Positions 6,906 through 54,424 of a stretch of 64,000 nucleotides of DNA are shown here, one piece after another. Origin of the DNA: Parcubacteria group bacterium (GTDB taxonomy: Bacteria > Patescibacteriota > Patescibacteriia > Patescibacteriales > GWC2-42-12); contig JACPHD010000001.1 in the NCBI GenBank assembly GCA_016188785.1, forward strand, positions 26,300 through 90,299, written 5' to 3'. The position numbers and the translations under genes were made by a program. The notes below the pieces were generated by a model, which worked only from the letters and a program-made list of their open reading frames with translations, did no database searches and was not told where the DNA came from. Each line of letters opens with the position of its first letter. The first letter of the stretch is position 1.

Positions 6906-7595
6906 TTATTGATTAACCAATATAGCGATAAACAGCTCTTTTAAAATTTTCAAGCCGCTGAAAAAACTTTGTCCGAAATTATGGTAAATAACCCTGACTG
7001 GTATTTCTTTAACTTTAAAATTATGTTTTTTGACTTCAAACATTATTTCCGAGCAGTGCGCCATCCGATCCTGCTGCCAGCTAATCCGGCGCGCCGCCTC
7101 GCGCGACATGGCCCTAAAACCGCTCTGCGGATCAGTCAAATTAATGTTAAAAAATACTTTATTCACCGCTCTGGCCAAAGGCATGATAAAATATTTTTTA
7201 AAAACTGGCATGGCCGAACTATGCTCGCCATTAAGAAAACGGGAGCCGAAAACAACCTCGGCCGCGCCGGCTTTAATCGGTGCCGCGATACATTCTAGGT
7301 CGCGCGCTAAAAACTGGCCATCAGCGTCAAAATGAATAATTATGTCAGCGCCCTTAGCCAGACCATAGGCCGTGCCGGTTCTTAAAGCCGCGCCCTGGCC
7401 GCGGTTGATTATATGCTTAAGTAAAACCACGCCTTCTTCTGTAATAAAATCAGCCGTTTTGTCGGTTGAGCCGTCATCAACAATAACAAGTTTATCAACC
7501 AAGGGGTATACCTGGTTGATTATTTCCGCTATATTTTTTTCTTCATTAAACGCCGGAATAACGCAAAAAATTTTTACCCCATTAGAAGTTCGCAT
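6906..7595 (-). CDS. GT2 polyprenyl-phosphate glycosyltransferase (DPM1-like)
   Basis: 'VIPAFNEEKNI...VIVDDGSTDKT' motifs. Start taken at MRTSNGVK (7595). Confidence 0.8.
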   Translation of the reverse strand: MRTSNGVKIFCVIPAFNEEKNIAEIINQVYPLVDKLVIVDDGSTDKTADFITEEGVVLLKHIINRGQGAALRTGTAYGLAKGADIIIHFDADGQFLARDLECIAAPIKAGAAEVVFGSRFLNGEHSSAMPVFKKYFIMPLARAVNKVFFNINLTDPQSGFRAMSREAARRISWQQDRMAHCSEIMFEVKKHNFKVKEIPVRVIYHNFGQSFFSGLKILKELFIAILVNQ

Positions 7596-7657
7596 AAAAA
7601 TTATTCTACAGAACATTATCTTATTCTTTCCCGTTAAAATTATAACTTCTAACGGGG
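7577..7657. repeat. Inverted-repeat element ACCCC(A/G)TTAGAAGTT...AACTTCTAACGGGG enclosing the GT2 start codon (copy 1)
   Basis: Arms at 7577-7590 and 7644-7657. Near-identical to the copy at 20897-20978. Confidence 0.7.
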
Positions 7658-7665
7658 TTCATATT

Positions 7666-8746: not shown

Positions 8747-10870
8747 TCACTTCTTAATTCTTATACTGCCGACGTTTACTCCGCCGCTAAAGTTTTCCTC
8801 ATAAGCGTAAAACGAACCCACAATTTTGCCATTAGCTTTAAAAACGCGGACATGAGGCGCTCCTCCCGGGCCGGCGGCGGCCACGATTTCGTCCAGGCCG
8901 TCGTTGTCAACATCAGCTTTGGCTAAATTGACGCCGCCGCGGAAATTACTGTTAAAAGCAAAAAAATGCGACAGCAAATTTCCTTTACCGTCAAAAAATT
9001 TAACATGCGGCCCGCCGCCTTTTTCCGGCGCGGCCACAATGTCTTCATGATAGCTGCCGGAGCCGTTTCTGATTCTGGCTGAAGCAACCTTAACGCCGCC
9101 GCGGGAAGTTTTAGGATAAGCTAAAAAGCGCCTGGCTAAAACGCCGCTGGCTTTAAAAATTCTGATTTCGGGAATCTTTCCGGCCGCCAAGCCGGTTATA
9201 ATTTCAGCTTGGCCGTCGCCGTCTAGATCGCCGGCCGCGATATTCAAGCCGCCTCTGAATTTACTGTCGTAAGCGTAAAACGAACCCAAAAACTGGCCGC
9301 GGCCGTTAAAAATTTTTACTTCTGAATCCCCGCCCTGAGCCTCTACGGCGATAATTTCATCACTACCGTCATTATTGATGTCGGCGCTGGCGATATTTAC
9401 GCCGCCGCGGAAATTATTCTTAAAAGCAAAAAATTGCCTAAGCAGTTCTCCTTTAACATTAAAAATTTTTATATGCGGCCCGCCGCCTGATCCGGCCGCG
9501 GTGATAATTTCTTGAGTGCCATCGCCGTTTATATCTCCGGCGGCAAAATTGACGCTGCCTTTAAAATTGCCGTAAGCCTGAAATTCAGTATCTTTTTTAC
9601 CATCCTGATTAGTAATTTTTACCGGGCCGGCTGAACCAATTTTCGGACCGACTAATAATTTTTCAATTTTATTATTTAATAAGCTCTTGACGTAATTAAC
9701 CGCCGCCGCTAGGTTTAATCGGCCATTGCCCAGGCGGCCTAAATAATTCGGATTTACCCGGCTGATATTATCCGCGTTAGCCAATAGCGCTTGGATGATT
9801 TCGCTTCTATTTAGCGCCGGGTTGGCCGCGGCTATTAGCGCCAGAGCGCCGCTCACCATAGGCACGGCTACGGAAGTGCCGGACCAATAGCCATCATAAT
9901 ATTTATTAAAAGGCTGATCTTTTATATAATTATCAGGCGAATAGACCACGGCGCTAAAAACGCTGACTCCGGGCGCGGCAATATCAATGCATTTACTGCC
10001 AAAGCTGGAAAAGGCTGTTTTCTGGTCCATGGTATCGGTCGCGGCTACGCCAATTACCCGATTTTCGCCGCTCGAGCCGTCCAGACAAACCGGATACATG
10101 GGAGTTTCATCTAAATTATAACCATCGCTCTGCCCGACTTCATTGCCTCCGGCGGCGACTACGATTAAGCCGGCGTCATAAGCGCGTTTAATCGCTTCAT
10201 CAAGCCCCTGGCTATAGCCAAAGCCGACAAAACTTAAATTGATAATATTGGCGCCGTTGGCAATGGCGTAATCAATCGCTTTAATAACCTTGGAAGCGCT
10301 GCCCTCGCCCGTATCATCTAAAATTTTAAGCGGCATAATTTTAGCTTGCCAGGTTATACCGGTAACGCCGGCGGCGTTATTACCAGCCGCCGCGGCAATG
10401 CCGGCAATAATAGTGCCGTGTAAAACGCCATCTTCGGAAAAACCCGGCTTAAACTTTGGCGCCGGATCAGGTACATTATTGACAAAATCCCAGCCATTGA
10501 CATCATCAATAAAACCGTTCTTATCATCATCAATCTTATTACCGGCGATTTCTTTTTTATTCAGCCAAATATTGCCTTGTAAATCAGGGTGATTGATTTG
10601 CACGCCTGAATCCAAAATCGCGATAACAACGTCCGGGCTTTCCCTGATATTATCCCAGGCTTCAGTGGCTTTAATTTTCTGCAAATACCATTGATTATTA
10701 AAAAAAGCGTCAGACGGTATTATGGAAGCATGATAAGTCTGGTCTGGCTCGGCGGATAAAGCATGGTAGCCGGAAAATATAACAAATATAATTATTACGA
10801 CTAAAAATATAATAAAAAAAGATGTTTTTTTATTCTTCACCCCGTTAGATATTACTGATAATTTTTGCAT
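8747..10870 (-). CDS. Secreted S8 subtilisin-like peptidase with C-terminal FG-GAP/VCBS repeats
   Basis: Catalytic triad D ('DSGVQINHPDL'), H ('HGTIIAGI'), S ('GTSVAVPMVSG'). N-terminal TM/signal. Repeated 'DINGDG/DLDGDG...GGGPHIK(I/F)F' motifs. Confidence 0.75.
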   Translation of the reverse strand: MQKLSVISNGVKNKKTSFFIIFLVVIIIFVIFSGYHALSAEPDQTYHASIIPSDAFFNNQWYLQKIKATEAWDNIRESPDVVIAILDSGVQINHPDLQGNIWLNKKEIAGNKIDDDKNGFIDDVNGWDFVNNVPDPAPKFKPGFSEDGVLHGTIIAGIAAAAGNNAAGVTGITWQAKIMPLKILDDTGEGSASKVIKAIDYAIANGANIINLSFVGFGYSQGLDEAIKRAYDAGLIVVAAGGNEVGQSDGYNLDETPMYPVCLDGSSGENRVIGVAATDTMDQKTAFSSFGSKCIDIAAPGVSVFSAVVYSPDNYIKDQPFNKYYDGYWSGTSVAVPMVSGALALIAAANPALNRSEIIQALLANADNISRVNPNYLGRLGNGRLNLAAAVNYVKSLLNNKIEKLLVGPKIGSAGPVKITNQDGKKDTEFQAYGNFKGSVNFAAGDINGDGTQEIITAAGSGGGPHIKIFNVKGELLRQFFAFKNNFRGGVNIASADINNDGSDEIIAVEAQGGDSEVKIFNGRGQFLGSFYAYDSKFRGGLNIAAGDLDGDGQAEIITGLAAGKIPEIRIFKASGVLARRFLAYPKTSRGGVKVASARIRNGSGSYHEDIVAAPEKGGGPHVKFFDGKGNLLSHFFAFNSNFRGGVNLAKADVDNDGLDEIVAAAGPGGAPHVRVFKANGKIVGSFYAYEENFSGGVNVGSIRIKK

Positions 10871-10918
10871 AGAATATAAAATTTACTAAGTTTAAATAAA
10901 GACGATATCTAACGGGGT
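10839..10918. repeat. Inverted-repeat element ACCCCGTTAGATAT...ATATCTAACGGGGT enclosing the S8 start codon (copy 3)
   Basis: Arms at 10839-10852 and 10905-10918. Confidence 0.65.
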
Positions 10919-10932
10919 AAATAACATCTTTA

Positions 10933-19112: not shown

Positions 19113-20915
19113 TTATTGATTCTGTTGAATAAATGTCACAACAATATCACCCTCGCTTAATCCTGACAAAACTTCAACCAAGCCGTTATCGCCGCGCAAA
19201 CCCAGGCTTACCGGAACTTCTTTAAGCTCCTGGCCGGACAGCAGTCTGGCGAATCGGCCATGGTTTTTTTCAACCACCGCCCGCGCCGGTATGATTAAAA
19301 CCCCGGGGTTTTTCGCTGTGATGATATTAGTGTTAGCGGTCATGCCTGATTTTACGGCCAGCTTTTTTCCGTCAAAATTAATTTTCACTTTGTAATAGAC
19401 TACCTCCTGAATCACGGTTTCAGCCGGCTCAATAAAATTAACCTGGCCGGCGAATTTAATATCCTGGCCGAAAGCGTCCAAGGTAATTTCCACCGGATTA
19501 TTGATCGCCACTTTGGTTATGTCAGCTTCGGAAACATTAACTTCAATTTGAAAATTACTTGCGCCCAAAAGAGAGAAAACCGTCTTACCTGGCGCGAACT
19601 GTTCGCCGGCTTCATAATTTTTTTTAGTAATAGCGCCGTCCGCCGGCGCTTTAATGATATTATTGGCGATTTGATTTCTTATTAAATCCAGGGCGGCTTG
19701 GGCCTGGCTTACTTGCGCCTGGCTCAAATTTATATCTTGAGCGCGCGCACCGGCCTTAAGCTGATTGAGCTGGGCTAAGGCCACCTGCCAGGCGCGGTAA
19801 GCATTATCAACCTTGGCGCTGGCCCCGGCCAGCTTTTCGGCCGCCTGGGCCTCGGCCGTAGCCAGCGCGTCTTTAGCCGCCGCCAGCGCATTGTTTAAAT
19901 TATTAAGCGCATCATTTAAATTATTCTGCGCGGTCTCTAAAGCGGAAATTCCGGTTGTCACGTTGGTTTGCTGGGCGCTCACATTGGTTTTGTAAGTATC
20001 AAGTTTAGTTTGCGTAAAACTGCCGCCGGCAATACTGGCTTCCAGCAAACTATAGCCGTCTTTTAAAGCGCTAAAAGTCTGATTTAGAGCCTTTGCAGTA
20101 TTATCCAGCGCCTGATTTATAGCCGAGCTGGACTGATTTAATTTAGCCGAAATTAAACTGACTTTAGCCGCGGCTAAAGCCGTATTAGCCTGGCCATAGC
20201 TATTCTTGGTGACGGCTAGCAGAGCGGCATTACCCGCGCCTAAAAAATTTTTAGCGTCGTTGTCTGTTAAAATAGTGTTAATATTATCCAGGGCGTTAGC
20301 GGCCACGGGAATTTTCGCCTCCATCACGGTTAAGGCCGCTACCTGGTAGTTTTTCACGGTTTGCTGTTCTTTAGTAATAAGGCCGCCTGAAGTTAAAGAC
20401 AAATCATCAAGATTTTTCTGCGCTTGAACTATACTTAAGGCAGTCGTGTTTTTTATTTTTTCCGCTTCATTCACGGCCGAAGCATAAGCGGTTTTCGCTT
20501 GGTCTACGTTGGCCTGGCTGACGGCTAACTCGCTGGCCGTGGCGCCGGCTAAAAGTTTGGCTAAATTAGCCTGGGCCACGCGCAGATTAGCTTGGGCTTC
20601 TTTGTCTTTTAAGGCCAAATCGCTTAAATCCAGCTCGGCCAAGACCTGATCTTTTTTAACTTTATCCCCGACCGCGACGTATATTTTAGCGATTTTACCC
20701 GTGGCCGGAAAATTCAAATCTATTTCCTGGTTAGATTTAACCGTTCCGGTCTCGCTCACGGTCTGGATTAAATCGCCGCGCGCGGCTTTAGCCGTAATAT
20801 ACTGGACGGCCGGTTTTTTATTTAAAAAGAAGTAAAAGCCAGCGCCCGCGGCTAGTAAAACTAAAATTATAAAATATTTATTTTTAAAAATTTTTACCCC
20901 GTTAGAAGTTTGCAT
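19113..20915 (-). CDS. HlyD/MacA-family periplasmic adaptor with a long Ala-rich coiled coil
   Basis: N-terminal TM, biotinyl-lipoyl-like 'VKSNQEIDL...GDKVKKDQVLAEL', long coiled coil, C-terminal beta-barrel. Confidence 0.7.
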   Translation of the reverse strand: MQTSNGVKIFKNKYFIILVLLAAGAGFYFFLNKKPAVQYITAKAARGDLIQTVSETGTVKSNQEIDLNFPATGKIAKIYVAVGDKVKKDQVLAELDLSDLALKDKEAQANLRVAQANLAKLLAGATASELAVSQANVDQAKTAYASAVNEAEKIKNTTALSIVQAQKNLDDLSLTSGGLITKEQQTVKNYQVAALTVMEAKIPVAANALDNINTILTDNDAKNFLGAGNAALLAVTKNSYGQANTALAAAKVSLISAKLNQSSSAINQALDNTAKALNQTFSALKDGYSLLEASIAGGSFTQTKLDTYKTNVSAQQTNVTTGISALETAQNNLNDALNNLNNALAAAKDALATAEAQAAEKLAGASAKVDNAYRAWQVALAQLNQLKAGARAQDINLSQAQVSQAQAALDLIRNQIANNIIKAPADGAITKKNYEAGEQFAPGKTVFSLLGASNFQIEVNVSEADITKVAINNPVEITLDAFGQDIKFAGQVNFIEPAETVIQEVVYYKVKINFDGKKLAVKSGMTANTNIITAKNPGVLIIPARAVVEKNHGRFARLLSGQELKEVPVSLGLRGDNGLVEVLSGLSEGDIVVTFIQQNQ

Positions 20916-20978
20916 AATAATTTAATCCTAGAAATATTACTTTATTCTTTCCCGTTAAAATTATAACTTCTAACGGGG
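20897..20978. repeat. Inverted-repeat element ACCCCGTTAGAAGTT...AACTTCTAACGGGG enclosing the HlyD start codon (copy 2)
   Basis: Arms at 20897-20910 and 20965-20978. Confidence 0.7.
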
Positions 20979-20996
20979 TTCCTCCTTGTAAAAGAT

Positions 20997-21404
20997 CTAG
21001 CTATGGCCGGCGGTTAAGTCCAGGTTGGCAATAATTTTTTTAAATTTAACCACGAATTCATCAAGATTAAAATCGGTTTTTATCAGATAAAAATCCGCTC
21101 CCAGCGCCTGGCCGCGTTGCCGGCTGTCCGCGTCGCTCAAATTGGTGAAAATAAAAACCGGTATCAGAGAAATCTCCGGCTCGGCTTTAATTTCGGCCAG
21201 CAAATCAAAACCGTTCACTTGCGGTAGAATAATATCCAAAATAATATAATCAGGCTTAAGAGTTTTTATCTTTTCCATCACCTCGGTTTTATCCGCGCCT
21301 TCATCGGTTATAACTTCAAAACCGGCCACTCTGAATTTAGCCTGCAGGCCGTAAAGCAGATTAGCCTCGTCTTCAATTATTAGAATTTTTTTGTTTTGGC
21401 TCAT
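20997..21404 (-). CDS. Stand-alone response regulator receiver (CheY-like)
   Basis: 'ILIIEDE', phosphoacceptor 'YIILDIILP', 'FTNLSD'. Confidence 0.8.
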   Translation of the reverse strand: MSQNKKILIIEDEANLLYGLQAKFRVAGFEVITDEGADKTEVMEKIKTLKPDYIILDIILPQVNGFDLLAEIKAEPEISLIPVFIFTNLSDADSRQRGQALGADFYLIKTDFNLDEFVVKFKKIIANLDLTAGHS

Positions 21405-21893: not shown

Positions 21894-22892
21894 TTAAAGG
21901 CAAGGCGAATATGATAATGATTTAATATAATTTTCCATAAATTCAAAATTAGGCTCGCCTTTTTTATTCACAGGCAAAAAGATTTTTTCTTGCATAATCC
22001 TTGTTCGCGATCTTTTTCTGCCAAAACTATATCTAAACGTTTGCATGTTTAATATTGAAGTAAAAAATAAGGCAATATATTTATTTAGAATAAAATTTAT
22101 TGGTTCTAAAATATTTGGATCACCCGAGGAGCTAAATCTATTTTCTTGATAAAAAGCTTTTCCATCTGTAGCGCCGTCAATCGTGATAACATTTCCATTT
22201 TCAACATACTTGTCAGAAGTACAAACAACCCCATTATTTTTATTGCTGGCTGTTATATATAAATACTCGCCAGAACAAATTTCATCCCTAGTAAAACTTT
22301 TTTTTGTTTTTCTTACATTAAATAATTTTGACAAATCAAATTCTTTAAATTCATTCTTTTTTAGTTTTAAAGCTTTATTTTTAATGATTTTACTATCATA
22401 TCTTATTTCTTTAGATAAACCTTTAATATAATTTTCCATAAATTCCCAATCAGGTAATTTATTTTTGGTAGCCGGAAGCAGTATTTTTTCTTTTTTTAAT
22501 CTCTCATTATTTATTTCTCTGGCAAAATTATATTTGCTTTTCATTGATTCAATGATTGGCTTAAGAAATAATGAAATATAATTATTTAATTTTATTTTTT
22601 TGTCTTTAATTTTAATTACTGTGCAATGGTCAGAGGCAACAAACTTGTAAGGGTGATAAAAACAATAACCAACGCTCCCGCTATTATTTAGTGTTAGTGC
22701 ATTCTTATATATCTTCATAAAACTCGGAGGAAGTATATAATTATCAACCCCATTATTTTTTTTGCTTGAAGAAATATACGATATATCACCCATAACTTGA
22801 TCTATTTTTACTAATCTCTTTCCCCGTGATATGGTAAAAACTTTAGCAAAATTAAATTCTTGCCAATTATTTTTATTAATCTTCATAATCAT
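21894..22892 (-). CDS. Specificity (S) subunit, HsdS/BcgIB-like with two TRD+CR halves
   Basis: Internal duplication: 'K(I/L)(F/L)LP..K...P(N/D)(F/W)EFMENYIK(S/G)LS' occurs twice. Confidence 0.6.
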   Translation of the reverse strand: MIMKINKNNWQEFNFAKVFTISRGKRLVKIDQVMGDISYISSSKKNNGVDNYILPPSFMKIYKNALTLNNSGSVGYCFYHPYKFVASDHCTVIKIKDKKIKLNNYISLFLKPIIESMKSKYNFAREINNERLKKEKILLPATKNKLPDWEFMENYIKGLSKEIRYDSKIIKNKALKLKKNEFKEFDLSKLFNVRKTKKSFTRDEICSGEYLYITASNKNNGVVCTSDKYVENGNVITIDGATDGKAFYQENRFSSSGDPNILEPINFILNKYIALFFTSILNMQTFRYSFGRKRSRTRIMQEKIFLPVNKKGEPNFEFMENYIKSLSYSPCL

Positions 22893-23295
22893 CGCCGTTA
22901 TTATTTAAAATTTCAGCCGCCCTAATATTATTCTCATTAAGAATTTCTAGTAATGTAATTTCATCAATATCCTTATCTAGCAAATCTAATTTTAGTTTTG
23001 TAGAGAAAATAACATACTCTTTAATGCTTTTTTCAAAAGTCTTTTCTGATAAATTATCATAATTTGTTTTTGCATGTGCTTGAATTATCCACTCGTCATT
23101 TCCTATTATTTCTTTATAGACTAAATTTATAAAATCTTCGTTTTCTTTTGGACGGTTAAGTTTTTTTAATAAATCTTTTTTTATACCATTCCATTTGTCT
23201 AAAACATCTGTTCTTCCTTTATTTTTAGATAAAACAAGACCATCATTTTTTAAATCATAAAAGACAACTTTGTTGTTATTATGAGGTTTATTTGT
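22876..23295 (-). pseudogene. Met-less 140-codon ORF, in-frame continuation of the upstream RM gene after a TAA
   Basis: Translation after the TAA at 23296-23298 reads TNKPHNNNKVVFYDLKNDGL...NNGDDYED with no stop until it overlaps the S-subunit start. Confidence 0.5.
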
Positions 23296-24858
23296 TTAAA
23301 AAACTGCTATGGCGGTATGCGTTGAGGCATTTGGTTGAAATAACTCAATCGGCATATTAATAACATATTTTAATGTGTGTTTTGATAAAATTCTATTTCT
23401 ATCAATATCATCTTTAAAATATGTGGAGAGCGGGGCAATTATAACCCCGTATCTACTAGAATTATCTAGCATCTTTTCTAAAAATTGAATTTCTTTTTTA
23501 GTGGGATTTTTTTTATTATCTTTACCGCCATACGGAGGATTTACAAATCCTATTGTAGGTTTATTCGGTAACTTATTTAAAATATTGTTTGTTTCATTTG
23601 AGAAAAAATCTTCATTAAAAATTTGAGATTTTCCATCTCCCCTAAAAAGCATGTTAGAAATCGCCAATGAATACATTGTACTACTTTTTTCAAGTCCAAT
23701 CAGTTGTTTGGTTTTTATATTTTTAATTCTTTCTTTTTTATCTGATAAATTTGATTTTTCAATTTCATCAACAAGTTTATTCATTCCCGCGATTAAAAAC
23801 GCCCCCGTTCCGCAAGCCGGATCAAAAATTACATCGTTTGTCTTAATATCAATTAATTCTGTAAATAAAGTAGTGATATGATTTGGAGTTAATATAATTC
23901 CTTTTTTTACACTTGTTATCCCCGCGTATCTTAAAAATTCTTCATAAAATTTTCCTATTATATCGTATGAAGTTTTTTTATCAAAAAGAGGTATTACTTT
24001 TTCTTCAAGTTCTTTTAAAATATCTTTTAAAATATTTGTGGAATTTAAATCATTATCAGTTTTTATAAAAGTTAATTCATTGGTTAATACCTCTATCTTA
24101 TTTTTATCAATTTTCTCACTTTCTAAAATATCGCTTATGGTCGTAGGCATATTTCTAATAATTGTTTGGGTATTCCATAAACTATAACTATTTTTAAAAT
24201 CTGACCCGCTATCTTTTGGGTATAGACAAATCATTAAAGCGCTTAAAAGCACCGGTCTTTTTTGAGAATCTAAGTTTCTTAACAACCTATTGATTTCGCT
24301 TGATGATTTTGAAATATCATTAGATATTTTTTCTAAATCAATGTTCTCAAAAAAAGCTAAATAATCTTCTTCGTCTAAAATTTCACTCTTACTAATATTT
24401 TGAATAAAGTTATTTTCAATAATATAAGTATCAAGTCTATGATTATATTCATCATTAATATCTCCAGAAAAAGCAATTCCTACTATTTTCCAATTTTTTA
24501 AATATTTTTTTATTGTTTCTTTTTCTTGACTTAATTTTTCGCTTGTGAAAAAAGATAAATAATGTTTTATTCCGTCAACGGCAAAATCCACAGGATCATC
24601 TTCATTTTTAGAAACATGGTTTTTTATTTGATCTTTATTTTCAATTAAAATCAATAATTTTTTTATTTCATTTACATAAATCAAATCCGGATAACCATGT
24701 TTTCCAGTTTCTTTTTTGCTTGTTTTATCTAAAATTTCTTGAATATATTTATTATTTTGTTTCTGGACATTCCAGCTATTAGTATACCGCCTATTCTCTT
24801 TAATAAAATTAAATAGATTAATATCTGTTTTTGCTTCGTTTTTTCTCAAATTTGCCAT
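23296..24858 (-). CDS. Type IIB/IIG (BcgI-A-like) restriction-modification subunit: N-terminal PD-(D/E)xK nuclease plus gamma-class N6-adenine MTase
   Basis: 'YPDLIYVNEIKKLLILIENKD' (PD...ENK). MTase motif I 'FDPACGTGAFLIAG', motif IV 'NPPYGG'. Confidence 0.7.
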   Translation of the reverse strand: MANLRKNEAKTDINLFNFIKENRRYTNSWNVQKQNNKYIQEILDKTSKKETGKHGYPDLIYVNEIKKLLILIENKDQIKNHVSKNEDDPVDFAVDGIKHYLSFFTSEKLSQEKETIKKYLKNWKIVGIAFSGDINDEYNHRLDTYIIENNFIQNISKSEILDEEDYLAFFENIDLEKISNDISKSSSEINRLLRNLDSQKRPVLLSALMICLYPKDSGSDFKNSYSLWNTQTIIRNMPTTISDILESEKIDKNKIEVLTNELTFIKTDNDLNSTNILKDILKELEEKVIPLFDKKTSYDIIGKFYEEFLRYAGITSVKKGIILTPNHITTLFTELIDIKTNDVIFDPACGTGAFLIAGMNKLVDEIEKSNLSDKKERIKNIKTKQLIGLEKSSTMYSLAISNMLFRGDGKSQIFNEDFFSNETNNILNKLPNKPTIGFVNPPYGGKDNKKNPTKKEIQFLEKMLDNSSRYGVIIAPLSTYFKDDIDRNRILSKHTLKYVINMPIELFQPNASTHTAIAVF

Positions 24859-24945
24859 ATCGTTTTATTGATATAAACTAGGATTATTTAAAGCTCTCTA
24901 TAATTATAGCGTAATTTAGCTTAAAATAAAAATTAGAATCAAAGT

Positions 24946-25560
24946 TTAAGCGAATTTTCTAATCACTCCCCTGACCACTCCCTGAATTAGCGGGTCGGCC
25001 GCGTAAATCGGCTTCATGGCTGAATTAGCCGGCTGCAGTCTGATGCGCGCCTGCTCGCGGTAAAATTTTTTCAAAGTGGCATAAGCATTGTTTAAAAGCG
25101 CTACCACCACATCGCCGTTTTGCGGCGACGGATTGCGCTCCACGATTACATAATCGCCGTCTAAAATTCCGTCTTCAATCATTGATTCGCCTTTAACTTT
25201 TAAAACGTAACTATTGGCGCTGTCGGTTACGAAATCAGCCGGCACGGCGATCGTGTCTTGTTCTTCAACCGCTTCGATCGGTTCGCCGGCTGTTATCAGG
25301 CCGACTAACGGCAATTCTAAACTGGCGGTCCAATTCACGGCCGTGGGAATAATTTCAATTGAGCGCGCTTGATTAAACGAAGTTTTTAGCATCTGCTTTT
25401 TCTCCAAAGTTTGCACATGCGCGTGAATCGTGGCCGGACTGGCTAAATTAAAATGCCGGCCGATTTCTCTTAAGCTGGGCGCGTAGCCGTTATCGCGCGT
25501 AAATTCAGTTATAAAATCCAGAATTTGCCTTTGTCTTTTGGTTAAATTGTTGCCCATATA
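24946..25560 (-). CDS. lexA: LexA repressor (HTH plus S24 peptidase)
   Basis: 'ITAG' cleavage site, Ser in 'KGESM', Lys in 'ATLKK'. Start taken at MGNNLTKRQRQIL. Confidence 0.85.
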   Translation of the reverse strand, partial: YMGNNLTKRQRQILDFITEFTRDNGYAPSLREIGRHFNLASPATIHAHVQTLEKKQMLKTSFNQARSIEIIPTAVNWTASLELPLVGLITAGEPIEAVEEQDTIAVPADFVTDSANSYVLKVKGESMIEDGILDGDYVIVERNPSPQNGDVVVALLNNAYATLKKFYREQARIRLQPANSAMKPIYAADPLIQGVVRGVIRKFA

Positions 25561-25597
25561 GTTTATGTTAAAAATTAGTTTTCCACAATACTCTTTT

Positions 25598-25626
25598 ATC
25601 ATACACGAACAAAATACGAAAGTCAA
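25598..25626 (-). promoter_or_regulatory. lexA promoter: TTGACT-N17-TATGAT with direct repeat TTCGTA-N5-GTTCGTG in the spacer (putative operator)
   Basis: Read on the minus strand: TTGACT TTCGTATTTTGTTCGTG TATGAT. Confidence 0.55.
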
Positions 25627-25727
25627 GAGCTTGCGCTATTTTGACTATTTTTTTTATTTATGCTTTAATAAATATTAACTGGCTCTGTCACCTTTTAACT
25701 TCAAAACTCTTAACAGGGGGATGAAAA

Positions 25728-36131: not shown

Positions 36132-36153
36132 AATATTTATAAAATTAAATGTT

Positions 36154-36182
36154 TTGACTTCGGTAAATCTTCGGTATATACT
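36154..36182 (+). promoter_or_regulatory. Promoter of the LexA-MTase gene: TTGACT-N17-TATACT with direct repeat CTTCGGTA-N3-CTTCGGTA in the spacer
   Basis: Read directly; same architecture as the lexA promoter at 25598-25626. Confidence 0.6.
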
Positions 36183-36219
36183 ATAAATATAACATGTGGA
36201 TAAATAATGTCAAATAACT

Positions 36220-38712
36220 ATGCCTACTCTAACGAAGAGACAAAAGCAAATTTTAGACTTCATTCGTGAGTATATTAATAAACATAATATATCCCCTACC
36301 TTTGAAGAAATTAAAAAACATTTTAGATTATCTGCGCTATCTACCGTACATCAGCATATTGAAGCATTAATCAAAAAGGAATTTTTAGTAAAAAATAATA
36401 ACTTATCAAGAGGACTCGAGTTAAAAACAAAAGGGGAAGACATAGTTGAAATTCCTTTACTCGGCGTGATTGCTGCTGGTCAACCGATCGAAGTCTTTGA
36501 AGAACACGAGACTATAACCGTTCCGCGCACCAATTTATCTAACGCCGGTGAACATTTCGCATTGAAAGTACAAGGCAATTCCATGATTGATGAAGGAATT
36601 TTTAATGGCGATACTGTAATTATCAGAAAACAAAATACGGCCAGCAACGGAGAAACTATAGTGGCTATAATAAATGGCAATGAAGCGACATTAAAAAAGA
36701 TATATAGATTTCAAAATGGTTTTAGGTTACAACCGGCGAACCCAGAAATGAAACCGATCTTTGTAAAAAGTTTGCTTGTCCAAGGTAAAGTTGTAAGTGT
36801 TATAAGAAACTTTGAAAACAATACTATCATTGAACAAATTTCTAGCAATGAAGAATATATTGTTTCCAAAGAATATTCGGAAAAAGGTATAAATTTAGAT
36901 CAGCTCATAAGTGAGCTGGTAAATTTTAGAGATATTATAATATTTAAATACGGCTTTAATACAGCAGATGATTTTTTAAAAACACAAATTATTGACGGCT
37001 TAATTCTACAAGAAATTTTTAAGCACATCGCAAATAAAAAAAATGTAAATACTAACATCCAAGCAATAAACGAAATACTGAAAGAACTAAACCTAAATCA
37101 TGTAGAATTTACAAAGGATGATATAAAAATTTTTGGGGATATTTTAAAAAAATACAATTTTAGTAGCTGCGATGATGATGTGCTTGGTTTTATATATCAA
37201 AGCATTAGGCCCCAGAGTGGCAGAAAAGATGATGGCCAATATTACACCCCCAAAAAAGTAGTTAAATATATTTTAAATAATGTAAAAATAAATTTAAAAG
37301 AAAACAAAAATTTAAAAATTTTAGACCCAGCCTGTGGATCCGGACAATTTTTGCTGGAAACATACGATATTTTGTATAACCAATACAAAACAATGGGTGA
37401 AAAAAACGAAGCGGACATCCATTACAAAATCATTAATAATCACTTACTTGGCTTTGATATAGATAAAATCGCCGTGAGTTTGGCTAAACTTAATTTATTT
37501 CTAAAATCAAAAGGTACGTATACAGAAAAATTTAATATTTTAATAACAAATACGCTTAAGCGAGATTCTAACTTACTAGAACCAAATCAATTGGACAAAT
37601 ACAAAGGCAGTATTGATTTTGTAGTGGGCAACCCTCCCTGGGGAGCAAATTTAAATGAAGAACAAAAAAAATATTATAAAAAGCATTATGATATAGGAAA
37701 AAATGGATTAAACACATTTACTCTTTTTATTGAACGTGCTTTTGATTTTCTTAAAAAAAATGGAAAATTAGGATACTTAATACCTGAGGCCTATCTAAAA
37801 ATTAAAGTGCACCAACTTTCTCGCCTGCAAATATTAAATAGAGCCAAGATACTACTCCTTGGAATTAGCGGGGATATATTTCAAAAAGTTTACGCTCCTT
37901 GTTTAGTAATAATTTTCCAACAAGAAAAAGATAAAACAGCCAGGGAAAAAAATGAAATAAATATAGAAAATGGAGTTTTCAACGGACATGAAGAACATAA
38001 GACGATAATTCAAAAAAATTTTGAAAAATCCGCTGAAAATATTTTTAACATCAACCAAGTCGGCGAAACTGAAGAAATACTAAACCATATCCTTGAACAA
38101 AAAAATTATTATCTTAAAGATAACGCATTATTTATATTAGGTATCGTAACCGGTAACAATAAAAAGTATCTAATCCGAGAAAAGAAAGACAATAAATATT
38201 CCCCTATTATAGTGGGCAAAGATATAAGCAAATATAAAATCAACTTCAGCGGCAATTATTTTATCTATGACAAAAACATACTCCAGCAAATTGCTCCGAA
38301 AGAATATTATACCGTACCTGAAAAAATTATTTACAAGTTTATTGGAGAAAAAATCACATTTGCTTATGACGATAAACAATATTTTACTTTAAACAATGCT
38401 AATGCATTCGTGCCTAAAATAGAAAAAATAAAAACCAAATATATTTTGGCCTTATTAAATTCAAAATTGATGCAATTTTTTTACAATAAATCTTTTTTTA
38501 CCGTAAGAGTACTCCGTGGCAATTTAGAAAAATTGCCTTTAGTTTACGCGGATCAAAAAAAACAAGAACAAATTATCAGCCTAGTTAATCAAGCAATAAA
38601 TTCAGAAGAAGATAGAATACTAAAAATAATTTTAGACAAAATTGACGACGAGGTATTCTCTCTTTATAAAATATCAAAAAAGTGGCAACAATATATTTGT
38701 AAAGAGACATAA
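36220..38712 (+). CDS. Fusion protein: complete LexA (HTH plus S24 peptidase) fused to a gamma-class N6-adenine DNA methyltransferase with a C-terminal TRD
   Basis: aa 1-200 are LexA-like ('VIAAGQPIE', 'QGNSM', 'ATLKK'), a close paralogue of the lexA at 24946. Then 'LDPACGSGQFLL' (motif I), 'GNPPWG' (motif IV) and ~300 aa TRD. No stop or frameshift between the parts. Confidence 0.8.
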   Translation: MPTLTKRQKQILDFIREYINKHNISPTFEEIKKHFRLSALSTVHQHIEALIKKEFLVKNNNLSRGLELKTKGEDIVEIPLLGVIAAGQPIEVFEEHETITVPRTNLSNAGEHFALKVQGNSMIDEGIFNGDTVIIRKQNTASNGETIVAIINGNEATLKKIYRFQNGFRLQPANPEMKPIFVKSLLVQGKVVSVIRNFENNTIIEQISSNEEYIVSKEYSEKGINLDQLISELVNFRDIIIFKYGFNTADDFLKTQIIDGLILQEIFKHIANKKNVNTNIQAINEILKELNLNHVEFTKDDIKIFGDILKKYNFSSCDDDVLGFIYQSIRPQSGRKDDGQYYTPKKVVKYILNNVKINLKENKNLKILDPACGSGQFLLETYDILYNQYKTMGEKNEADIHYKIINNHLLGFDIDKIAVSLAKLNLFLKSKGTYTEKFNILITNTLKRDSNLLEPNQLDKYKGSIDFVVGNPPWGANLNEEQKKYYKKHYDIGKNGLNTFTLFIERAFDFLKKNGKLGYLIPEAYLKIKVHQLSRLQILNRAKILLLGISGDIFQKVYAPCLVIIFQQEKDKTAREKNEINIENGVFNGHEEHKTIIQKNFEKSAENIFNINQVGETEEILNHILEQKNYYLKDNALFILGIVTGNNKKYLIREKKDNKYSPIIVGKDISKYKINFSGNYFIYDKNILQQIAPKEYYTVPEKIIYKFIGEKITFAYDDKQYFTLNNANAFVPKIEKIKTKYILALLNSKLMQFFYNKSFFTVRVLRGNLEKLPLVYADQKKQEQIISLVNQAINSEEDRILKIILDKIDDEVFSLYKISKKWQQYICKET

Positions 38713-38716
38713 ACGA

Positions 38717-39349
38717 TTAAATAATTGCCGAGAATAAATTTCTTGGTTCGGTAGCAGATTCTTTCATCTGCTCGTAACCTGGGTGCCATTGATAAGTCGC
38801 ATTTGAACCTGTGGTACTGTGCTGTGGAGAAAATTTTGCGCCAAAAATCGGTTTGCCGGCCCTAATATCTCTTTTATTTAAAACCCAATAAAATTTTCCC
38901 TCTGGCGTTATTCCTAAAAAAATATAGTAATTAATCCTTGGGTCTTTTAAACGTATTTGTTCAAAAATAAACTTATTGCCTTGATAAATAGTGGCTGTTT
39001 TAACTTCTATATATTTATTCTTTTTCAATTCTAAAAAATCAGGATTCAATTGATTTTGGTTTCCTCTCTCGAACTTTTTAAGTGCATCTTTACCAGCAAC
39101 ATTCTCGTAATCGGCTCGAAATAAATCCTCTCCGGCACAACCTATTTGGCGTGAACGCAAAAGTTTAAATCGTAAATACAAATCAGCATCCTCAACTTCT
39201 TTGGTTATAGAGATACCTTTTGTCATGGCGAAACCCAAAACAAATTGATAGTTACCTTCATTAATTTTATCTTTCAATAAATCATCCACATCAACGCCTT
39301 TCAGGTGAGCGTCATAAAACCGATTAAATATTTCTTCAATAGTTTTCAT
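38717..39349 (-). CDS. Putative type II restriction endonuclease (PD-(D/E)xK: NPDF...YIEVK)
   Basis: Convergent with the MTase (4-bp gap). Start overlaps the upstream XRE gene (ATGA). Confidence 0.45.
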   Translation of the reverse strand: MKTIEEIFNRFYDAHLKGVDVDDLLKDKINEGNYQFVLGFAMTKGISITKEVEDADLYLRFKLLRSRQIGCAGEDLFRADYENVAGKDALKKFERGNQNQLNPDFLELKKNKYIEVKTATIYQGNKFIFEQIRLKDPRINYYIFLGITPEGKFYWVLNKRDIRAGKPIFGAKFSPQHSTTGSNATYQWHPGYEQMKESATEPRNLFSAII

Positions 39350-39564
39350 AAAAAATAGCTAATTTGTTTTTTATATAAACCCGCAAAATTTTTTAATTCA
39401 ATAATATCTATTCTCTGCTCACCGGCCTCAACTTTAGAAACATAAGACTGAGGTTTTTTTGTTTTTTCCGATACCTCTTTCTGGGTTAAACCCGCATCTA
39501 ATCTGGCCTGTTTAAGGAGTCCTATAACTCGTTGATATTCACTTGTTCGTATTGTTTTAGGCAT
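39346..39564 (-). CDS. XRE-family HTH protein, likely R-M controller (C protein)
   Basis: 72-aa HTH_3-like 'LTQKEVSEKTKKPQSYVSKVE', overlapping the downstream nuclease gene. Confidence 0.6.
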   Translation of the reverse strand: MPKTIRTSEYQRVIGLLKQARLDAGLTQKEVSEKTKKPQSYVSKVEAGEQRIDIIELKNFAGLYKKQISYFL

Positions 39565-40039: not shown

Positions 40040-40113
40040 TGGCTGCGGGACCTGGATTCGAACCAAGATAACATCCTCCAGAGGGATGTGTCCTACCATT
40101 AGACGATCCCGCA
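40040..40113 (-). tRNA. tRNA-Gln (anticodon CUG)
   Basis: Minus-strand sequence TGCGGGATCGTCTAATGGTAGGACACATCCCTCTGGAGGATGTTATCTTGGTTCGAATCCAGGTCCCGCAGCCA. U1-A72, T-loop TTCGAAT, anticodon loop CTCTGGA. 3' half nearly identical to the E. coli tRNA-Gln 3' half. Confidence 0.75.
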
Positions 40114-42646: not shown

Positions 42647-42708
42647 AAATTTTGTTTTATTAGTTATTTAATTTGTCATAATCTTATCTAAAAAATTATA
42701 ATTTGTAA

Positions 42709-42763
42709 ACCCCGTTAGAAAAAGTGCTGCTTGCCCCGCTTAGAAATTTATTTCTAACGGGGT
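42709..42763. repeat. Inverted-repeat element ACCCCGTTAGAA...TTTCTAACGGGGT (copy 4) upstream of the 214-aa gene
   Basis: Read directly. Confidence 0.65.
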
Positions 42764-42773
42764 AAAGACAGGC

Positions 42774-49833: not shown

Positions 49834-50409
49834 TTACAATTCTTCCGAAATCTTATTTTTAATAAGCTCATCAACCGCCTTTTTCGCCCAATTATTTTTT
49901 TCTTCCCTAGAATCTCTGATTAAACCGCAAACCGCGTCAACCAATCTGATAAAAACATTATTTTCATCTTTTTTTACGCCCCTGACTTTTTTAGTCTTAA
50001 TTTTTAAATCTCTTAAACCCTTAATAAAAATCGCCAGTTCTTTTTTCCTTAAGCCGTCCACAAAAACCGTCGCTTTATAATCACCGCCGGATTTTTTTAA
50101 AATGGCTTTAGCCGTCACGTAGGCAGTAAGCTCCAAATATTTTTTCGTATCGCTGAAAATCTCAAAAAATATTTTATTGCGCAAAATATCAAGCCGGGAA
50201 ATTCCTTTAATATATTCTTGGCGGCATTCGCGCCGCGCTTTATGCCATTTAAGATTATTCTTGCCGCTGGCTTTTTCTATATTTTCCAATTTATCCGCCA
50301 AATTTTCCCTTTCACGCTCCATGATCAAAACGCTTACCACAAAGACTAAACCTTTAGTATCTTGGCCGGACTCATCCACATAAGCGTAGATTTTCTTTTT
50401 ATCTGCCAT
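49834..50409 (-). CDS. DUF3800-like protein
   Basis: N-terminal 'IYAYVDESG'. Confidence 0.5.
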   Translation of the reverse strand: MADKKKIYAYVDESGQDTKGLVFVVSVLIMERERENLADKLENIEKASGKNNLKWHKARRECRQEYIKGISRLDILRNKIFFEIFSDTKKYLELTAYVTAKAILKKSGGDYKATVFVDGLRKKELAIFIKGLRDLKIKTKKVRGVKKDENNVFIRLVDAVCGLIRDSREEKNNWAKKAVDELIKNKISEEL

Positions 50410-51591: not shown

Positions 51592-54348
51592 TTAATCAGC
51601 CTCGTCAACATTAAATACAACGGTATCGGTGGGCGCGCCGTTAACTATGGCGTTAACGCCTGAAAGCTGACCCCGGGCAGTTATGTCCCGGATAAATAAA
51701 CTAATCTGGTCGCCAACCGCGGTTTTATCCGCGTCTAAAAACAAATCTAAAATAAGGTTTTCCCCCGGATCTAAGCTAAGGCCGCCAAAACTTATTTCAT
51801 TAACATCCGCCACCGGCCGGGACAGCCGCGAGCCAGCTTGCCTTAACCGGCCATTATCATCAGTAAAAGCAAACTTTAAATTACTAAAGCCATTATTGTT
51901 GGATAAATTGCCGGCCGAACCGAAAGAATTTATAATAGCGCGGTCTAATCTTACTTTCTCCGCCGCATTATTACTAAGATTGAAACTGGCGATTTTATTT
52001 TCTTTCTGCCCTTTAACCGCGTTGCCGCCGCTCAAACTTTTAATCTGTAAAACCGTCTGCGTAATCTCAACTTCCGGGCTGGCCACGCCCCGATTATTAA
52101 TCGCGGCCGGAATTTTACTATTCTCCCCCATGGCCCTGGCGCTTTCTACAAAAAATTTCACCGTGCCGTCCGCGCTAAGGTCCAGATCAGCTTTAACAAA
52201 AATGTCAACCGAATCGCCGGCTCTTACCCCGGCCCTTAAATCGGCGAACTTATATGAATCCGCGTTTGGCTCGGCAATTATTTCGCTAATTCTGGAGCCG
52301 CCGCGATACAGGGCTAAATTACTGAAACCATTGGCAAAATTTACCGGCGTAAAACCGGCCACATTGGCCACGGTTAGGTTGGTGATAATTAAATCTTCCT
52401 CTTTGACCGCTTCGGCCTTAAAGGCCGCCAAGACCACCTGCTTTCTGCCGGCTACGGCTAATTCATTATCGCTGATTCGGCCGGCGAATAAATGAAGCGA
52501 AGGTTCAATTACCTGTATTTTCGGCCCGGCCAATAAAACATTATCACGGCGCAAAACATTATCATCAGCAATATTATAATTTACACTTTTAATCAAAATC
52601 TGATAGCTGTCGCCGGACAAAGCCGTTTCCGGAATATGCGCCCTTAACTGGAATTTAATAGTTTTGCCTTTAGGCGCGTTAAAACCGCTTAAACTGATTT
52701 CCGCAAAATTACCGTCAACTTTTCTGCCGTCAACCAGGCCCAGCTCGGCCTTGTTTTGCGCGTCAAAAATTTTTACCGACTTGTCTAAAGCCGGCGTTTC
52801 GCCTGATCTTACGACTTGCAAAGTCAGGGAAGAAAGTTTTATGTCGCTGGTATTATTACGCAGTTCAAGCGAGCCTAAAAGCGCCTCTTCCTGGCCGGCA
52901 TAAATTAAACGTTCATTATCTTTTAAAGGACTGGCGGTTAAGAAAACCGGCGCCCGCTTGATTAAAAAATTATTAGCTTGGCCGCTTAAGGCCGGGTCAA
53001 TTTCCGTGAAAATGTCATAATTATTATCATCAAAAGCGCTTAGATCATATTTGCTGGCAAGAATAAATTTTACCGTGCGGTCTTCGCCGTTTATAATATC
53101 AACTTTAAGAGTTAAATCCAGGGAATTATTTTTGCCTAAAAACAGGCCCCTAATAAAAACAAAGTCGGCTTTTTGGCCAGTCATGTTTCGGACTTGACCT
53201 ACGGTCCGTCCGTTGGCCGAGACTAAAGTTAAATTTTTTAAATCTTCCGGCCGGGCCGAACCCACGTTAGTTAAAGTGATTCTTTCAATCACGATGTCTT
53301 CGTTGCCGCTTACTTCGGTCAAGCGGAAAGCCGCCACGGCCTTATTAGTTGAACCGATAACCGCTTCCTGGCTGTTTGAATTCAAAACCAAAGGCGAGGC
53401 CTTAAGCCGGCCTAAATTATTAACCCCGTCAATTAGCTTGAATTCCGGGCCGAACTGAGGAAAATCTCCATTTAACGGAGCGTCAGCGTCAACCTGGCTA
53501 GCCTTGAGCAAACCGAATTTTAAAGTCTGGCCGAAAACGCCGCTAACCGGTTTTATATCGGCTTTTAAATAAAATATTTTCGCTTGACCGGCCGGAATAA
53601 CTAAAGGCTCGGCGCTTAAATTAAGATACAAGCGGCCATTGGTTAAACTATTTTTTTCGCCTTTAACCTGGCCGGCTTGATCAGTTAAATAAAGCGCGTC
53701 AATAATATCGTCCGCGGACACGCCCTGGCGGGTAAAAGTAAGCGCCCTGACTTTAATGTCGCGCGCGAAAGATTCAAATATAAATGCCGCCACTATATTA
53801 GCGCGGCTGCTGGTCGGCAGATACGGTGAAGCCAGGGCCAGCGGCTTGGAAGTAATTACTAACCGGCCATTAGCCTCTTCGCCGGTTAATTCGCGATCAA
53901 GCGCGCCGGCCGCTTTAAGCCCGGAAAAATCAACCGGTTTATATTCATTAAGATCAGCGGCCAGAACAGTGACAATCTGATTCCATTTAAAGCCGGAGTC
54001 AATAAACTGCTGTTCGGATTTAATCAAGGCTTTTTGGCCGTTAACAATATAATAAACCGAACGGCTGTTCTTGATTTTAACTAATTTCAGTTCCGGCCAT
54101 TTATTTAATTCCGCGCTGCTGATAATTTTAATGTCGCTCCATTTATTGCCATAAGCCAAAAAAGCTTTACTGTTCACATAAGCTTTTTTAAGCCCGCGCG
54201 CGTGATCCAAATAATATACTACCGGACTATCAGCGGTTTTAACCTGTTTAATTTTAGGATTAACAACGCCATAAGCCGCCCAGGCATTTGGCGCGCTAAT
54301 AAGCAAATAAATAATAGTAATTATGGCTAATTTTAAAAAATTTAACAT
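51592..54348 (-). CDS. Large secreted surface (S-layer-like) protein
   Basis: Signal peptide 'IIYLLISAPNAWA'. 918 aa, beta-rich repetitive. Confidence 0.55.
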   Translation of the reverse strand: MLNFLKLAIITIIYLLISAPNAWAAYGVVNPKIKQVKTADSPVVYYLDHARGLKKAYVNSKAFLAYGNKWSDIKIISSAELNKWPELKLVKIKNSRSVYYIVNGQKALIKSEQQFIDSGFKWNQIVTVLAADLNEYKPVDFSGLKAAGALDRELTGEEANGRLVITSKPLALASPYLPTSSRANIVAAFIFESFARDIKVRALTFTRQGVSADDIIDALYLTDQAGQVKGEKNSLTNGRLYLNLSAEPLVIPAGQAKIFYLKADIKPVSGVFGQTLKFGLLKASQVDADAPLNGDFPQFGPEFKLIDGVNNLGRLKASPLVLNSNSQEAVIGSTNKAVAAFRLTEVSGNEDIVIERITLTNVGSARPEDLKNLTLVSANGRTVGQVRNMTGQKADFVFIRGLFLGKNNSLDLTLKVDIINGEDRTVKFILASKYDLSAFDDNNYDIFTEIDPALSGQANNFLIKRAPVFLTASPLKDNERLIYAGQEEALLGSLELRNNTSDIKLSSLTLQVVRSGETPALDKSVKIFDAQNKAELGLVDGRKVDGNFAEISLSGFNAPKGKTIKFQLRAHIPETALSGDSYQILIKSVNYNIADDNVLRRDNVLLAGPKIQVIEPSLHLFAGRISDNELAVAGRKQVVLAAFKAEAVKEEDLIITNLTVANVAGFTPVNFANGFSNLALYRGGSRISEIIAEPNADSYKFADLRAGVRAGDSVDIFVKADLDLSADGTVKFFVESARAMGENSKIPAAINNRGVASPEVEITQTVLQIKSLSGGNAVKGQKENKIASFNLSNNAAEKVRLDRAIINSFGSAGNLSNNNGFSNLKFAFTDDNGRLRQAGSRLSRPVADVNEISFGGLSLDPGENLILDLFLDADKTAVGDQISLFIRDITARGQLSGVNAIVNGAPTDTVVFNVDEAD

Positions 54349-54360
54349 ATAATATAATTT

Positions 54361-54424
54361 ACCCCGTTAGAAAAATCTTTGACCAAACCAGGATAAACCC
54401 TGTTAAAAAAATTTCTAACTGGGT
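54361..54424. repeat. Inverted-repeat element ACCCCGTTAGAAAAAT...ATTTCTAACTGGGT (copy 5) upstream of the surface-protein gene
   Basis: Read directly. Confidence 0.6.

Follow-up and report, generated by a model that had tools for sequence, protein, structure and literature searches.

Why should unrelated proteins encoded along one short stretch of a bacterial genome begin with the same few residues? The question is raised by 64,000 nucleotides of a Parcubacteria group genome (contig JACPHD010000001.1, positions 26,300 to 90,299; hereafter, the window), in which an inverted repeat lies at the 5' ends of five genes and the residues SNGVK recur near the N termini of three of their predicted products. 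An earlier reading of the DNA letters (the original prediction) had taken the repeat either for a hairpin that controls translation of envelope genes or for a small mobile element supplying start codons. We find that the five repeats are very probably copies of a non-autonomous DNA transposon, that is, a transposable element of the miniature inverted-repeat kind (MITE), with ends CCCCGTTAGA(RRY)...(RYY)TCTAACGGGG. The shared SNGVK is a by-product of insertion, and is neither a protein signal nor a regulator of envelope genes.

Five repeat copies and their empty orthologous sites

Allowing at most one mismatch, ACCCCGTTAGA matched the window ten times, compared with 0.42 matches expected and no shuffle out of 100 reaching ten. 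The matches form five inverted pairs, here called c1 (7576-7586/7648-7658), c2 (10839-10849/10908-10918), c3 (20896-20906/20969-20979), c4 (42709-42719/42753-42763) and c5 (54361-54371/54414-54424); all five copies claimed by the original prediction were recovered, with its coordinates at most 1 nt off. Terminal inverted repeats with arms of 11-15 nt are present in every copy, and the mobile unit, which ends in CCCCGTTAGA...TCTAACGGGG, is 53-83 bp long. There are five copies in 64 kb. The surrounding genes are all co-directional on the minus strand, and on that strand each copy sits in the brief interval separating one gene's stop from the next gene's start. As happens with multicopy repeats, contigs assembled from short reads of the same organism break off inside c1.

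The clearest comparison is available for c1 (7573-7661, minus strand; element proper 7577-7657, CCCC...GGGG), which lies in the gap between an epimerase stop codon (7668-7666) and a GT2 gene annotated by NCBI in a 229-aa form (P0001). On the minus strand it is flanked by the 4-mers TGAA (7661-7658) and TAAA (7576-7573). If the element is taken out together with one copy of the flank, the sequence becomes ATG AAA ATT TTT TGC GTT ATT CCG, or MKIFCVIP, which is the N terminus of ~100 GT2 orthologues. The best 120 GT2 homologues are mostly 222 aa long and start with MKIFCVIPAFNEEKNI; M-x-x-SNGVK was found in six and was absent from 114. At the DNA level, a filled relative reads ..gatA TGAA|CCCCGTTAGA...TCTAACGGGG|TGAA AACATTTTGCG (L124) and two empty ones read ..tatttATGAAAACATTTTGCG (L255 and L256), so that at the junction itself gatA TGAA[CCCC..GGGG]TGAA AACATTTTGC stands against tttATGAAAACATTTTGC, in genes whose proteins are 96.8% identical. 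A second pair from a single sample (L125 filled, L257 empty) has 93% identical proteins and a homologous upstream flank, and L123/L128 provide a third empty GT2 site. Filled GT2 genes are polyphyletic, and because the nearest relatives of each filled gene are empty genes, either the ATG|AA site has been hit repeatedly or the element has been precisely lost repeatedly.

Similar comparisons were possible for the next two copies. At c2 (10836-10921, minus strand; element proper 10840-10917), located between a GT4 gene and an S8 peptidase gene at the start of the latter, the downstream flank TGAA on the minus strand produces a rebuilt GTG at 10840-10838, while the upstream flank has decayed to TTTA. 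The window reads AAAGATGTTATTTA|CCCC...GGGG|TGAAGAATAAAAAAACATCTTTTTTT at this site, and the empty site (L128) reads AAAGATGTT ATG AAA AAG AAT ATA ACA TCT TTT TTT, encoding MKKNITSFF. Copy c3 (20893-20982, minus strand; element proper 20897-20978) is ~88% identical to c1, has minus-strand flanks TAAA downstream and GGAA upstream and is found between a response regulator gene and the start of an HlyD-type adaptor gene. Empty HlyD sites (aaattcATGAAAATTTTACGAAAT in L126, ttatttATGAAAATATTTAAAAGC in L127) point to an ancestral start MKIFKNKFF, and 48 of the 49 closest homologues (P0121-P0169, at least 58% identity) start with MK or MR, continuing I/F-F-K-N-K-F-F or similar, and have no prefix. 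Of 80 HlyD homologues inspected, the window protein alone carries the prefix MQTSNGV; the other 79 lack it. The idea that the 'KIF' of c3 had been copied from GT2 was rejected, as HlyD orthologues natively start MKIF.

Because orthologous empty sites exist for GT2, S8 and HlyD, differing from the filled sites by the element plus one duplication, c1, c2 and c3 are all insertions into the TGAA of an ATG-AAA start. The original prediction had also considered that related genes might all carry SNGVK without the upstream arm; we found the opposite, with most orthologues lacking SNGVK.

The two remaining copies lie upstream of their genes. Copy c4 (42706-42766, minus strand; element proper 42710-42762, with 55 nt between arm ends) falls between a VirD4-like ATPase gene and a 214-aa gene, at a distance of 63 nt from the latter's ATG (42646), and is flanked on the plus strand by a perfect 4-bp duplication, TAAA/TAAA. 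Its interior motif GCTGCTTGCCCC is common to copies from Desulfobacteria (L016), with a related form in Phycisphaerae (L063). Copy c5 (54358-54427, minus strand; element proper 54362-54423) has one arm mismatch and mismatched plus-strand flanks (TTTA and TAAA), and is separated by 12 nt from the downstream ATG (54348) of a 918-aa protein with a signal-peptide-like N terminus. A Pfam scan agreed with the GT2, S8 peptidase and HlyD-type identities proposed earlier and found no Pfam family for the 214-aa and 918-aa products.

Other repeats were seen around the GT2 start. In other Patescibacteria, a different insert occupies the same start codon (L258, 395-455; P0004, P0034, P0062, P0073, P0078, P0085 and P0101), consisting of two small GC hairpins (TCCGCCAAAGGCGGA and TCCGCCTCGGGCGGA) and giving N termini such as M..SAKGGSASGGK-IFCVIP; insertions at the GT2 start codon thus come from more than one family of palindromic elements, which makes it a hot spot. 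The epimerase-GT2 gap of relatives (L123, 2880-2980; L125, 2760-2925; L257, 1365-1480) holds still other, unrelated palindromic repeats, for example one with 26-nt arms GTTTGGGCTAAATTTATAAAATTTTC...GAAAATTTTATAAATTTAGCCCAAAC. Small genomes of the candidate phyla radiation (CPR) seem to carry several hairpin-repeat families. Upstream of c3 on the minus strand (20979-21025), the conserved end of the response regulator gene is followed by ~39 nt (CTTAACCGCCGGCCATAGCTAGATCTTTTACAAGGAGGA) that the empty sites L126 and L127 lack; within them a strong AAGGAGG directly abuts the arm, and there is no ATG. This stretch may derive from a rearrangement between element copies or from a second insertion.

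Target-site duplication, reading frame and start codons

We scanned one genome per GTDB species with the pattern ACCCCGTTAGA-N33-63-TCTAACGGGGT and obtained at least 119 loci, compared with ~2 expected by chance. Hosts among the matches listed include Patescibacteria, Omnitrophota, Planctomycetota (Pirellulales, Phycisphaerae, Sedimentisphaerales and Brocadiaceae), Cloacimonadota, Bacteroidota, Nitrospirota/Nitrospinota, Desulfobacterota, Gammaproteobacteria, KSB1 and others. Many listed loci hold several copies (up to five in 4 kb in L105). The length between arm ends is 49-94 nt in 127 listed copies from the genome collection and reaches 99 nt in listed copies of the start-codon subfamily described below. 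Element interiors track host base composition, being AT-rich in CPR and forming GC-rich hairpins in GC-richer genomes. As in MITEs, copies are small, are numerous per genome and contain no open reading frame (ORF) for a transposase. Annotated plasmid and phage collections gave no meaningful match to the element, and because just six IMG/VR contigs carry it, phages are no obvious vector.

The flanks of these copies follow the pattern T-N-N-[ACCCC...GGGGT]-N-N-A, with T at -3 in 110 of 119 listed copies and A at +3 in 112. The 2 bp beside the arms were identical in direct orientation in 76 of the 119 (mean of 17.6 and maximum of 31 in 2000 shuffles), and the two variable flank bases were palindromic in 11. 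A 4-bp target-site duplication, TNNA (weakly RTNNAY), thus flanks the CCCCGTTAGA...TCTAACGGGG unit, and a direct repeat around inverted termini is the footprint of staggered-cut transposition. On this model, a MITE of ~50-95 bp that encodes no transposase enters at a 4-bp staggered cut at TNNA and those 4 bp are duplicated, while a DDE-type transposase would act in trans.

The geometry of such an insertion accounts for the recurring N terminus. The element ends in GGGG, and insertion into A|TGAA|A always creates the downstream junction TCT AAC GGG GTG AAA, read as S-N-G-V-K. The old ATG is left upstream, and with the rebuilt GGG-GTG-AAA the gene keeps a GTG start; the K is the gene's own second codon and the V the rebuilt GTG read internally. 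SNGVK is shared because the terminal GGGG and the duplicated TGAA force the arm into the S-N-G frame. In the frame of the old ATG, the sequence ATG AAC CCC GTT AGA reads M-N-P-V-R. The rebuilt GTG is intact in c2 and L124 and has decayed to GTA in c1 (7657-7655), c3 and L125. Once the GTG has decayed, the gene would be read from the element's own ATG, with an N-terminal gain of 6 residues (c3) or 7-14 residues (c1). This extension is probably real in c1, c3 and L125, because the in-element ATG is the sole remaining start.

As originally described, the longest ORFs of three copies have their first ATG within the spacer (in c1, 7616 or 7595; in c2, 10870-10868; in c3, 20915-20913) and continue through the downstream arm, giving MFCRIIFMRTSNGVKIFCVIP (..MRTSNGVKIFCVIP) for c1, MQKLSVISNGVKNKKTSFF for c2 and MQTSNGVKIFKNKYF for c3. 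The proposed consensus start M-x-(T/I)SNGVK holds literally for two of these products; the third has ISNGVK further in. At c1, the ancestral GT2 ATG (7660-7662, minus strand), as read from the sequence and compared with the empty sites L123, L255 and L257, is now severed from its gene. A mini-ORF of 13 codons, MNPVRSYNFNGKE*, now starts there and ends within c1, 4 nt before the first of two in-element in-frame ATGs (7593-7616, minus strand). These ATGs, at 7616-7614 and 7595-7593, would give MFCRIIFMRTSNGVK... and MRTSNGVK..., respectively. Which start codon cells use is something we infer here.

Start codons are a recurrent target. Scanning metagenomes for the three-arm architecture CCCCGTTAGA-N6-16-TTAACGGG-N30-55-TCTAACGGGG recovered at least 120 loci, with 88 distinct full copies among the matches listed. 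This subfamily, to which the following counts of listed copies refer, is ~80-84 bp long and consists of an arm, a short loop, a degenerate inverse arm, an AT-rich stretch, an ATG, ~8 codons and the second arm. A perfect 4-bp duplication flanks 50 of the 88 listed copies and one with a single mismatch flanks 16; the most frequent duplications are TGAA (n = 24) and TAAA (n = 11), and a few are 5-bp TGAAA. A long ORF in the SNGV frame follows in 68 of the 88 listed copies; the ancestral start is exactly the insertion codon in 33 of these 68 and lies 1-6 codons upstream in 14 more. An in-frame in-element ATG is present in 59 of the 68 listed copies, exactly 24 nt before the arm in 38 of the 59, and 80 of 100 loop ATGs in listed copies are also in frame. 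In the genome set, at least 12 copies sit at start codons in the form ATG[A/G]A|CCCC...GGGG|TG[A/G]A, for example at ArgG (L122), a response regulator (L085) and a cytidylyltransferase-like protein, MKILAVIPAR (L019). The excess at start codons would at least partly reflect survivorship, insertions elsewhere being lost unless in frame and stop-free.

The genes downstream of 61 listed subfamily copies belong to every functional class, with no link to the envelope; examples are MetK, MurC, L1, L13, L21, enolase, GatB, UppS, SmpB, PFOR-gamma, ArsR, pilins and response regulators. The specificity for envelope genes suggested by the window therefore did not extend to the family, as the same element stands before or inside unrelated housekeeping genes (MetK, MurC, L1/L13/L21, enolase, SecA and CarB).

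Other subfamilies appear compatible with translation by a second route, in which a net length of 3n and the lack of stops would let the element be translated as a 16-28-residue insert (xPVR...SNGV) in an ordinary protein. Of the 127 listed genome-collection copies, 77 have a net insertion length (arm-to-arm + 2) divisible by three, among them all 19 that are read through (with 60 or more open codons on either side); 17 of the 19 use the frame xPVR...SNGV. Ten read-through inserts were scanned with Pfam, nine of which lie within recognizable genes (L114 has no Pfam family). Insertion sites were located directly after the last Pfam domain of SecA; within the CarB ATP-grasp domain, a class II aminoacyl-tRNA synthetase (aaRS) core, an AIR-synthase-like C-domain, Sua5/YrdC and a GAF domain; and beside sulfatase and Kdo-kinase domains.

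With a TTTA duplication, another open frame rebuilds the G-F-T of prepilin leaders (L011 and L063). In these pilin-like leader copies (L011, 3025-3130 and 6120-6225; L063, 1465-2358, minus strand; L213 and L232), the junction GGGG|TTTA|CC supplies the G-F-T of the GFTLIE cleavage motif of type IV pilin-like leaders. At just 3 of 18 positions is the arm followed by TTTA (GGTTTTACCCCGTTAGAA) different from a typical sequence coding for GFTLIE (GGTTTTACCCTGATTGAA), a likeness that may be chance or may hint at how targets are chosen or where the element came from.

Alternative explanations and the predicted hairpin

Could the repeat instead be a cis-regulatory RNA hairpin that sequesters the initiation region and co-regulates envelope genes? 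In the predicted minimum-energy RNA folds of all five window copies the outer arms are paired (z of -2.5 to -4.8), as the original prediction had supposed for the mRNA. In c1-c3 the codons right after the in-element AUG fall in the stem, and five of five copies occupy the 5' ends of co-directional genes. Arm pairing is expected of any inverted repeat, however, and a shared envelope-gene regulator is hard to reconcile with GT2, S8 and HlyD orthologues that work without the element, with copies before unrelated housekeeping genes and inside coding regions, with target-site duplications and with a spacer that varies freely in length and sequence. Nor is there a matching Rfam family: the sole window match at the gathering threshold was a tRNA, and nothing at E ≤ 1 overlapped the elements in eight loci. 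We regard this identity for the element as improbable. There is practically no room left for reading SNGVK as a true motif of the protein N terminus, for example a signal for sorting or cleavage, with the upstream arm incidental. The motif is common to three unrelated proteins, and with a TTTA duplication the arm in another frame rebuilds a prepilin G-F-T, yet the orthologue comparison refutes the idea, given the 114 GT2 and 79 other HlyD homologues without it. SNGVK also always coincides with the DNA palindrome and a duplicated TGAA, and the frame geometry fully explains it.

A REP/REPIN-type palindrome mobilized by a RAYT (Y1) transposase, or an integron attC-like site, would likewise be short, palindromic and multicopy. 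Conserved hairpin or three-way-junction interiors with compensatory changes, found in some subfamilies, would suit either, and the arms contain GTTAGAT/ATCTAAC, resembling the attC core GTTRRRY, although the arm GTTAGAA fits that core in some copies only. What speaks against REPs is that they, like IS200/IS605-type elements, make no target duplication, whereas this element duplicates 4 bp; its copies also occur inside ORFs and at start codons rather than being just extragenic. Among ~30 window ORFs scanned against Pfam there was neither a Y1 transposase nor a tyrosine recombinase. No cassette array or integrase was seen in the window, where the copies are scattered at 7.5, 10.8, 20.9, 42.7 and 54.4 kb between housekeeping genes, and both origins are highly improbable. 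Two further candidates were set aside: an operator or transcription-factor site, given window arm spacings of 33-62 nt and copies inside ORFs, and a match to CCCCGTTAGA in a paper on a Porphyromonas gingivalis capsule locus, which is an artificial CCC bulge in an oligonucleotide and unrelated (PMC3969353).

The reading as a MITE, and with it the earlier suggestion of a small mobile element supplying start codons, draws on the repeat structure, target-site duplications, empty sites, many copies per genome, recurrence at the same start codon in close relatives, the frame logic and in-frame bias and the conserved in-frame ATG of the subfamily. Several points weigh against it. Within the window, comparison of the two flanks found a perfect duplication at c4 only, with one mismatch at c1 and two each at c2, c3 and c5, and the upstream flank of c3 is no simple insertion junction, ~39 nt differing from orthologues. 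Our searches required exact 10-11-nt arms, so that arm conservation is partly imposed by the query, and copies share ancestry, so that counts are not independent events. Finally, a search of ~250 loci for arm pairs 0.6-3.5 kb apart, ORFs beside solo arms and recurrent ORF clusters revealed no autonomous element or transposase with these ends; the recurrent clusters were housekeeping and type IV pilus genes only, and the rebuilding of prepilin G-F-T probably explains the recurrence of pilus genes near copies. The only transposase-like ORF of the window, an IS481-like one, was rejected as a partner, its ends being unrelated. Every testable MITE feature is present except an identified autonomous partner.

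As a MITE, the element may also affect translation of the genes it occupies through its predicted hairpin. Position 12-14 of the arms varies between copies with complementarity kept. A GC-rich subfamily of 64-67 nt (L028, L031, L046, L112, L115 and L118) can form a perfect three-way junction, composed of a 14-bp outer stem, a hairpin AAG..CTG and a hairpin CCGA..TCGG; compensatory changes at stem positions 12-14 and in the first hairpin alter the sequence and keep the pairing. Such changes suggest selection on a fold, in single-stranded DNA or RNA. Speculatively, ribosomes starting at the old Shine-Dalgarno (SD) sequence and ATG would melt the stem and allow re-initiation, which fits c1. In phage T4 gene 38, a hairpin lies between the Shine-Dalgarno sequence and the start codon, and translational coupling is known. 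Insertion into A|TGAA would create a comparable geometry, with the native SD/ATG and the rebuilt GTG at the two feet of a 14-15-bp stem. Unlike in a conserved coupling design, the distance from mini-ORF stop to in-element ATG, 4 nt in c1, ranges from -29 to +42 nt across copies; this rules out a conserved termination-reinitiation arrangement and leaves coupling speculative.

These strands can be joined in one tentative picture, which we consider doubtful as a whole. A cross-phylum MITE lineage would be compatible with translation in two ways, through stop-free 3n inserts (including those in SecA, CarB and aaRS) and through a CPR start-codon subfamily with a rebuilt GTG and a portable ATG-leader. 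In the latter, initiation of the host gene would lie in a hairpin of about -25 kcal/mol that ribosomes loading at the old SD/ATG open, and the element would act as a mobile, self-installing translational-coupling or attenuation module before housekeeping genes of ultra-small bacteria.

Neighbouring genes and comparison with known systems

Beyond the repeats, the window contains a defence-type gene cluster (97-2247, ~21900-39400 and 49834-50409), with a Z1-domain protein, a type I restriction-modification specificity subunit and methylase, a GapS1-like protein (sub-threshold), a LexA-methylase fusion and a DUF3800 protein. The fusion is an 830-aa ORF (36220-38712, plus strand) that combines a LexA DNA-binding domain, an S24 peptidase and an N6-adenine methyltransferase of Eco57I/TaqI_C type; such a union of a LexA-like repressor with a type IIG-like restriction-modification enzyme is unusual. 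Interspersed with the defence genes is the IS481-like transposase ORF (32367-33614), which scored under the NCBIfam cut-off, and a tRNA gene lies at 40043-40113.

For genome annotation, the element matters in that it creates false or real N-terminal extensions (xSNGVK, xPVR...SNGV and ..LTGFT) in CPR and other uncultivated phyla, and that it breaks short-read assemblies; recognizing it corrects start-codon calls and avoids spurious 'motifs'. It also offers a natural system for studying ribosome initiation beside a very stable hairpin in streamlined bacteria, and the tolerance of essential proteins for 20-residue inserts. Because near-identical strains have been hit repeatedly at one and the same ATG, the element is usable as a marker of recent transposition in groundwater populations.

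How does the element compare with known families? IS1380 and piggyBac elements have ends starting CC(C) and 4-5-bp duplications, with piggyBac inserting as TTAA|CCCTAGAAAG.... The junction TNNA|CCCCGTTAGAAA... and the occasional 5-bp TGAAA duplication recall them, a likeness of few bases that is a lead and not a classification; no IS1380 or piggyBac-like transposase was found in the loci examined. Classical MITEs (Correia/CREE of Neisseria, ERIC, RUP and QMITE1 of Coxiella) are described as having terminal inverted repeats, a target-site duplication, no transposase gene and many copies; their RNA forms a hairpin if they are co-transcribed, and they now and then give rise to ORF fusions (PMC10969869, PMC5896051 and PMC3184786). 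Each of those families is restricted to a genus or species and mostly intergenic, whereas the present element spans many phyla. The literature, of which our coverage was incomplete, yielded no description of this element, nor of a MITE that rebuilds a start from its terminal G or carries a conserved in-frame ATG leader. We rate it as a new MITE family that is unusual in its many phyla, its start-codon residence with start regeneration or donation and its in-frame insertion (SecA and CarB).

In behaviour, the closest likeness is to Rickettsia palindromic elements, short palindromic mobile repeats tolerated in frame within unrelated genes, to which they add a conserved peptide (PMC10969869). The 19 of 127 listed copies that are read in frame, with nine of ten scanned inserts in recognizable genes, resemble them in behaviour only. 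Rickettsia palindromic elements are ~100-150 bp long and confined to Rickettsia, whereas this element, 50-95 bp long and different in sequence, is found across many phyla and makes clear 4-bp duplications. Palindromic elements that insert in frame have so far been viewed as largely peculiar to Rickettsia; in the present case, a single family of terminal repeats behaves in this way across at least eight phylum-level groups. Unlike the Rickettsia elements, one of its subfamilies specializes on start codons and carries its own ATG, so that the start codon is regenerated or donated.

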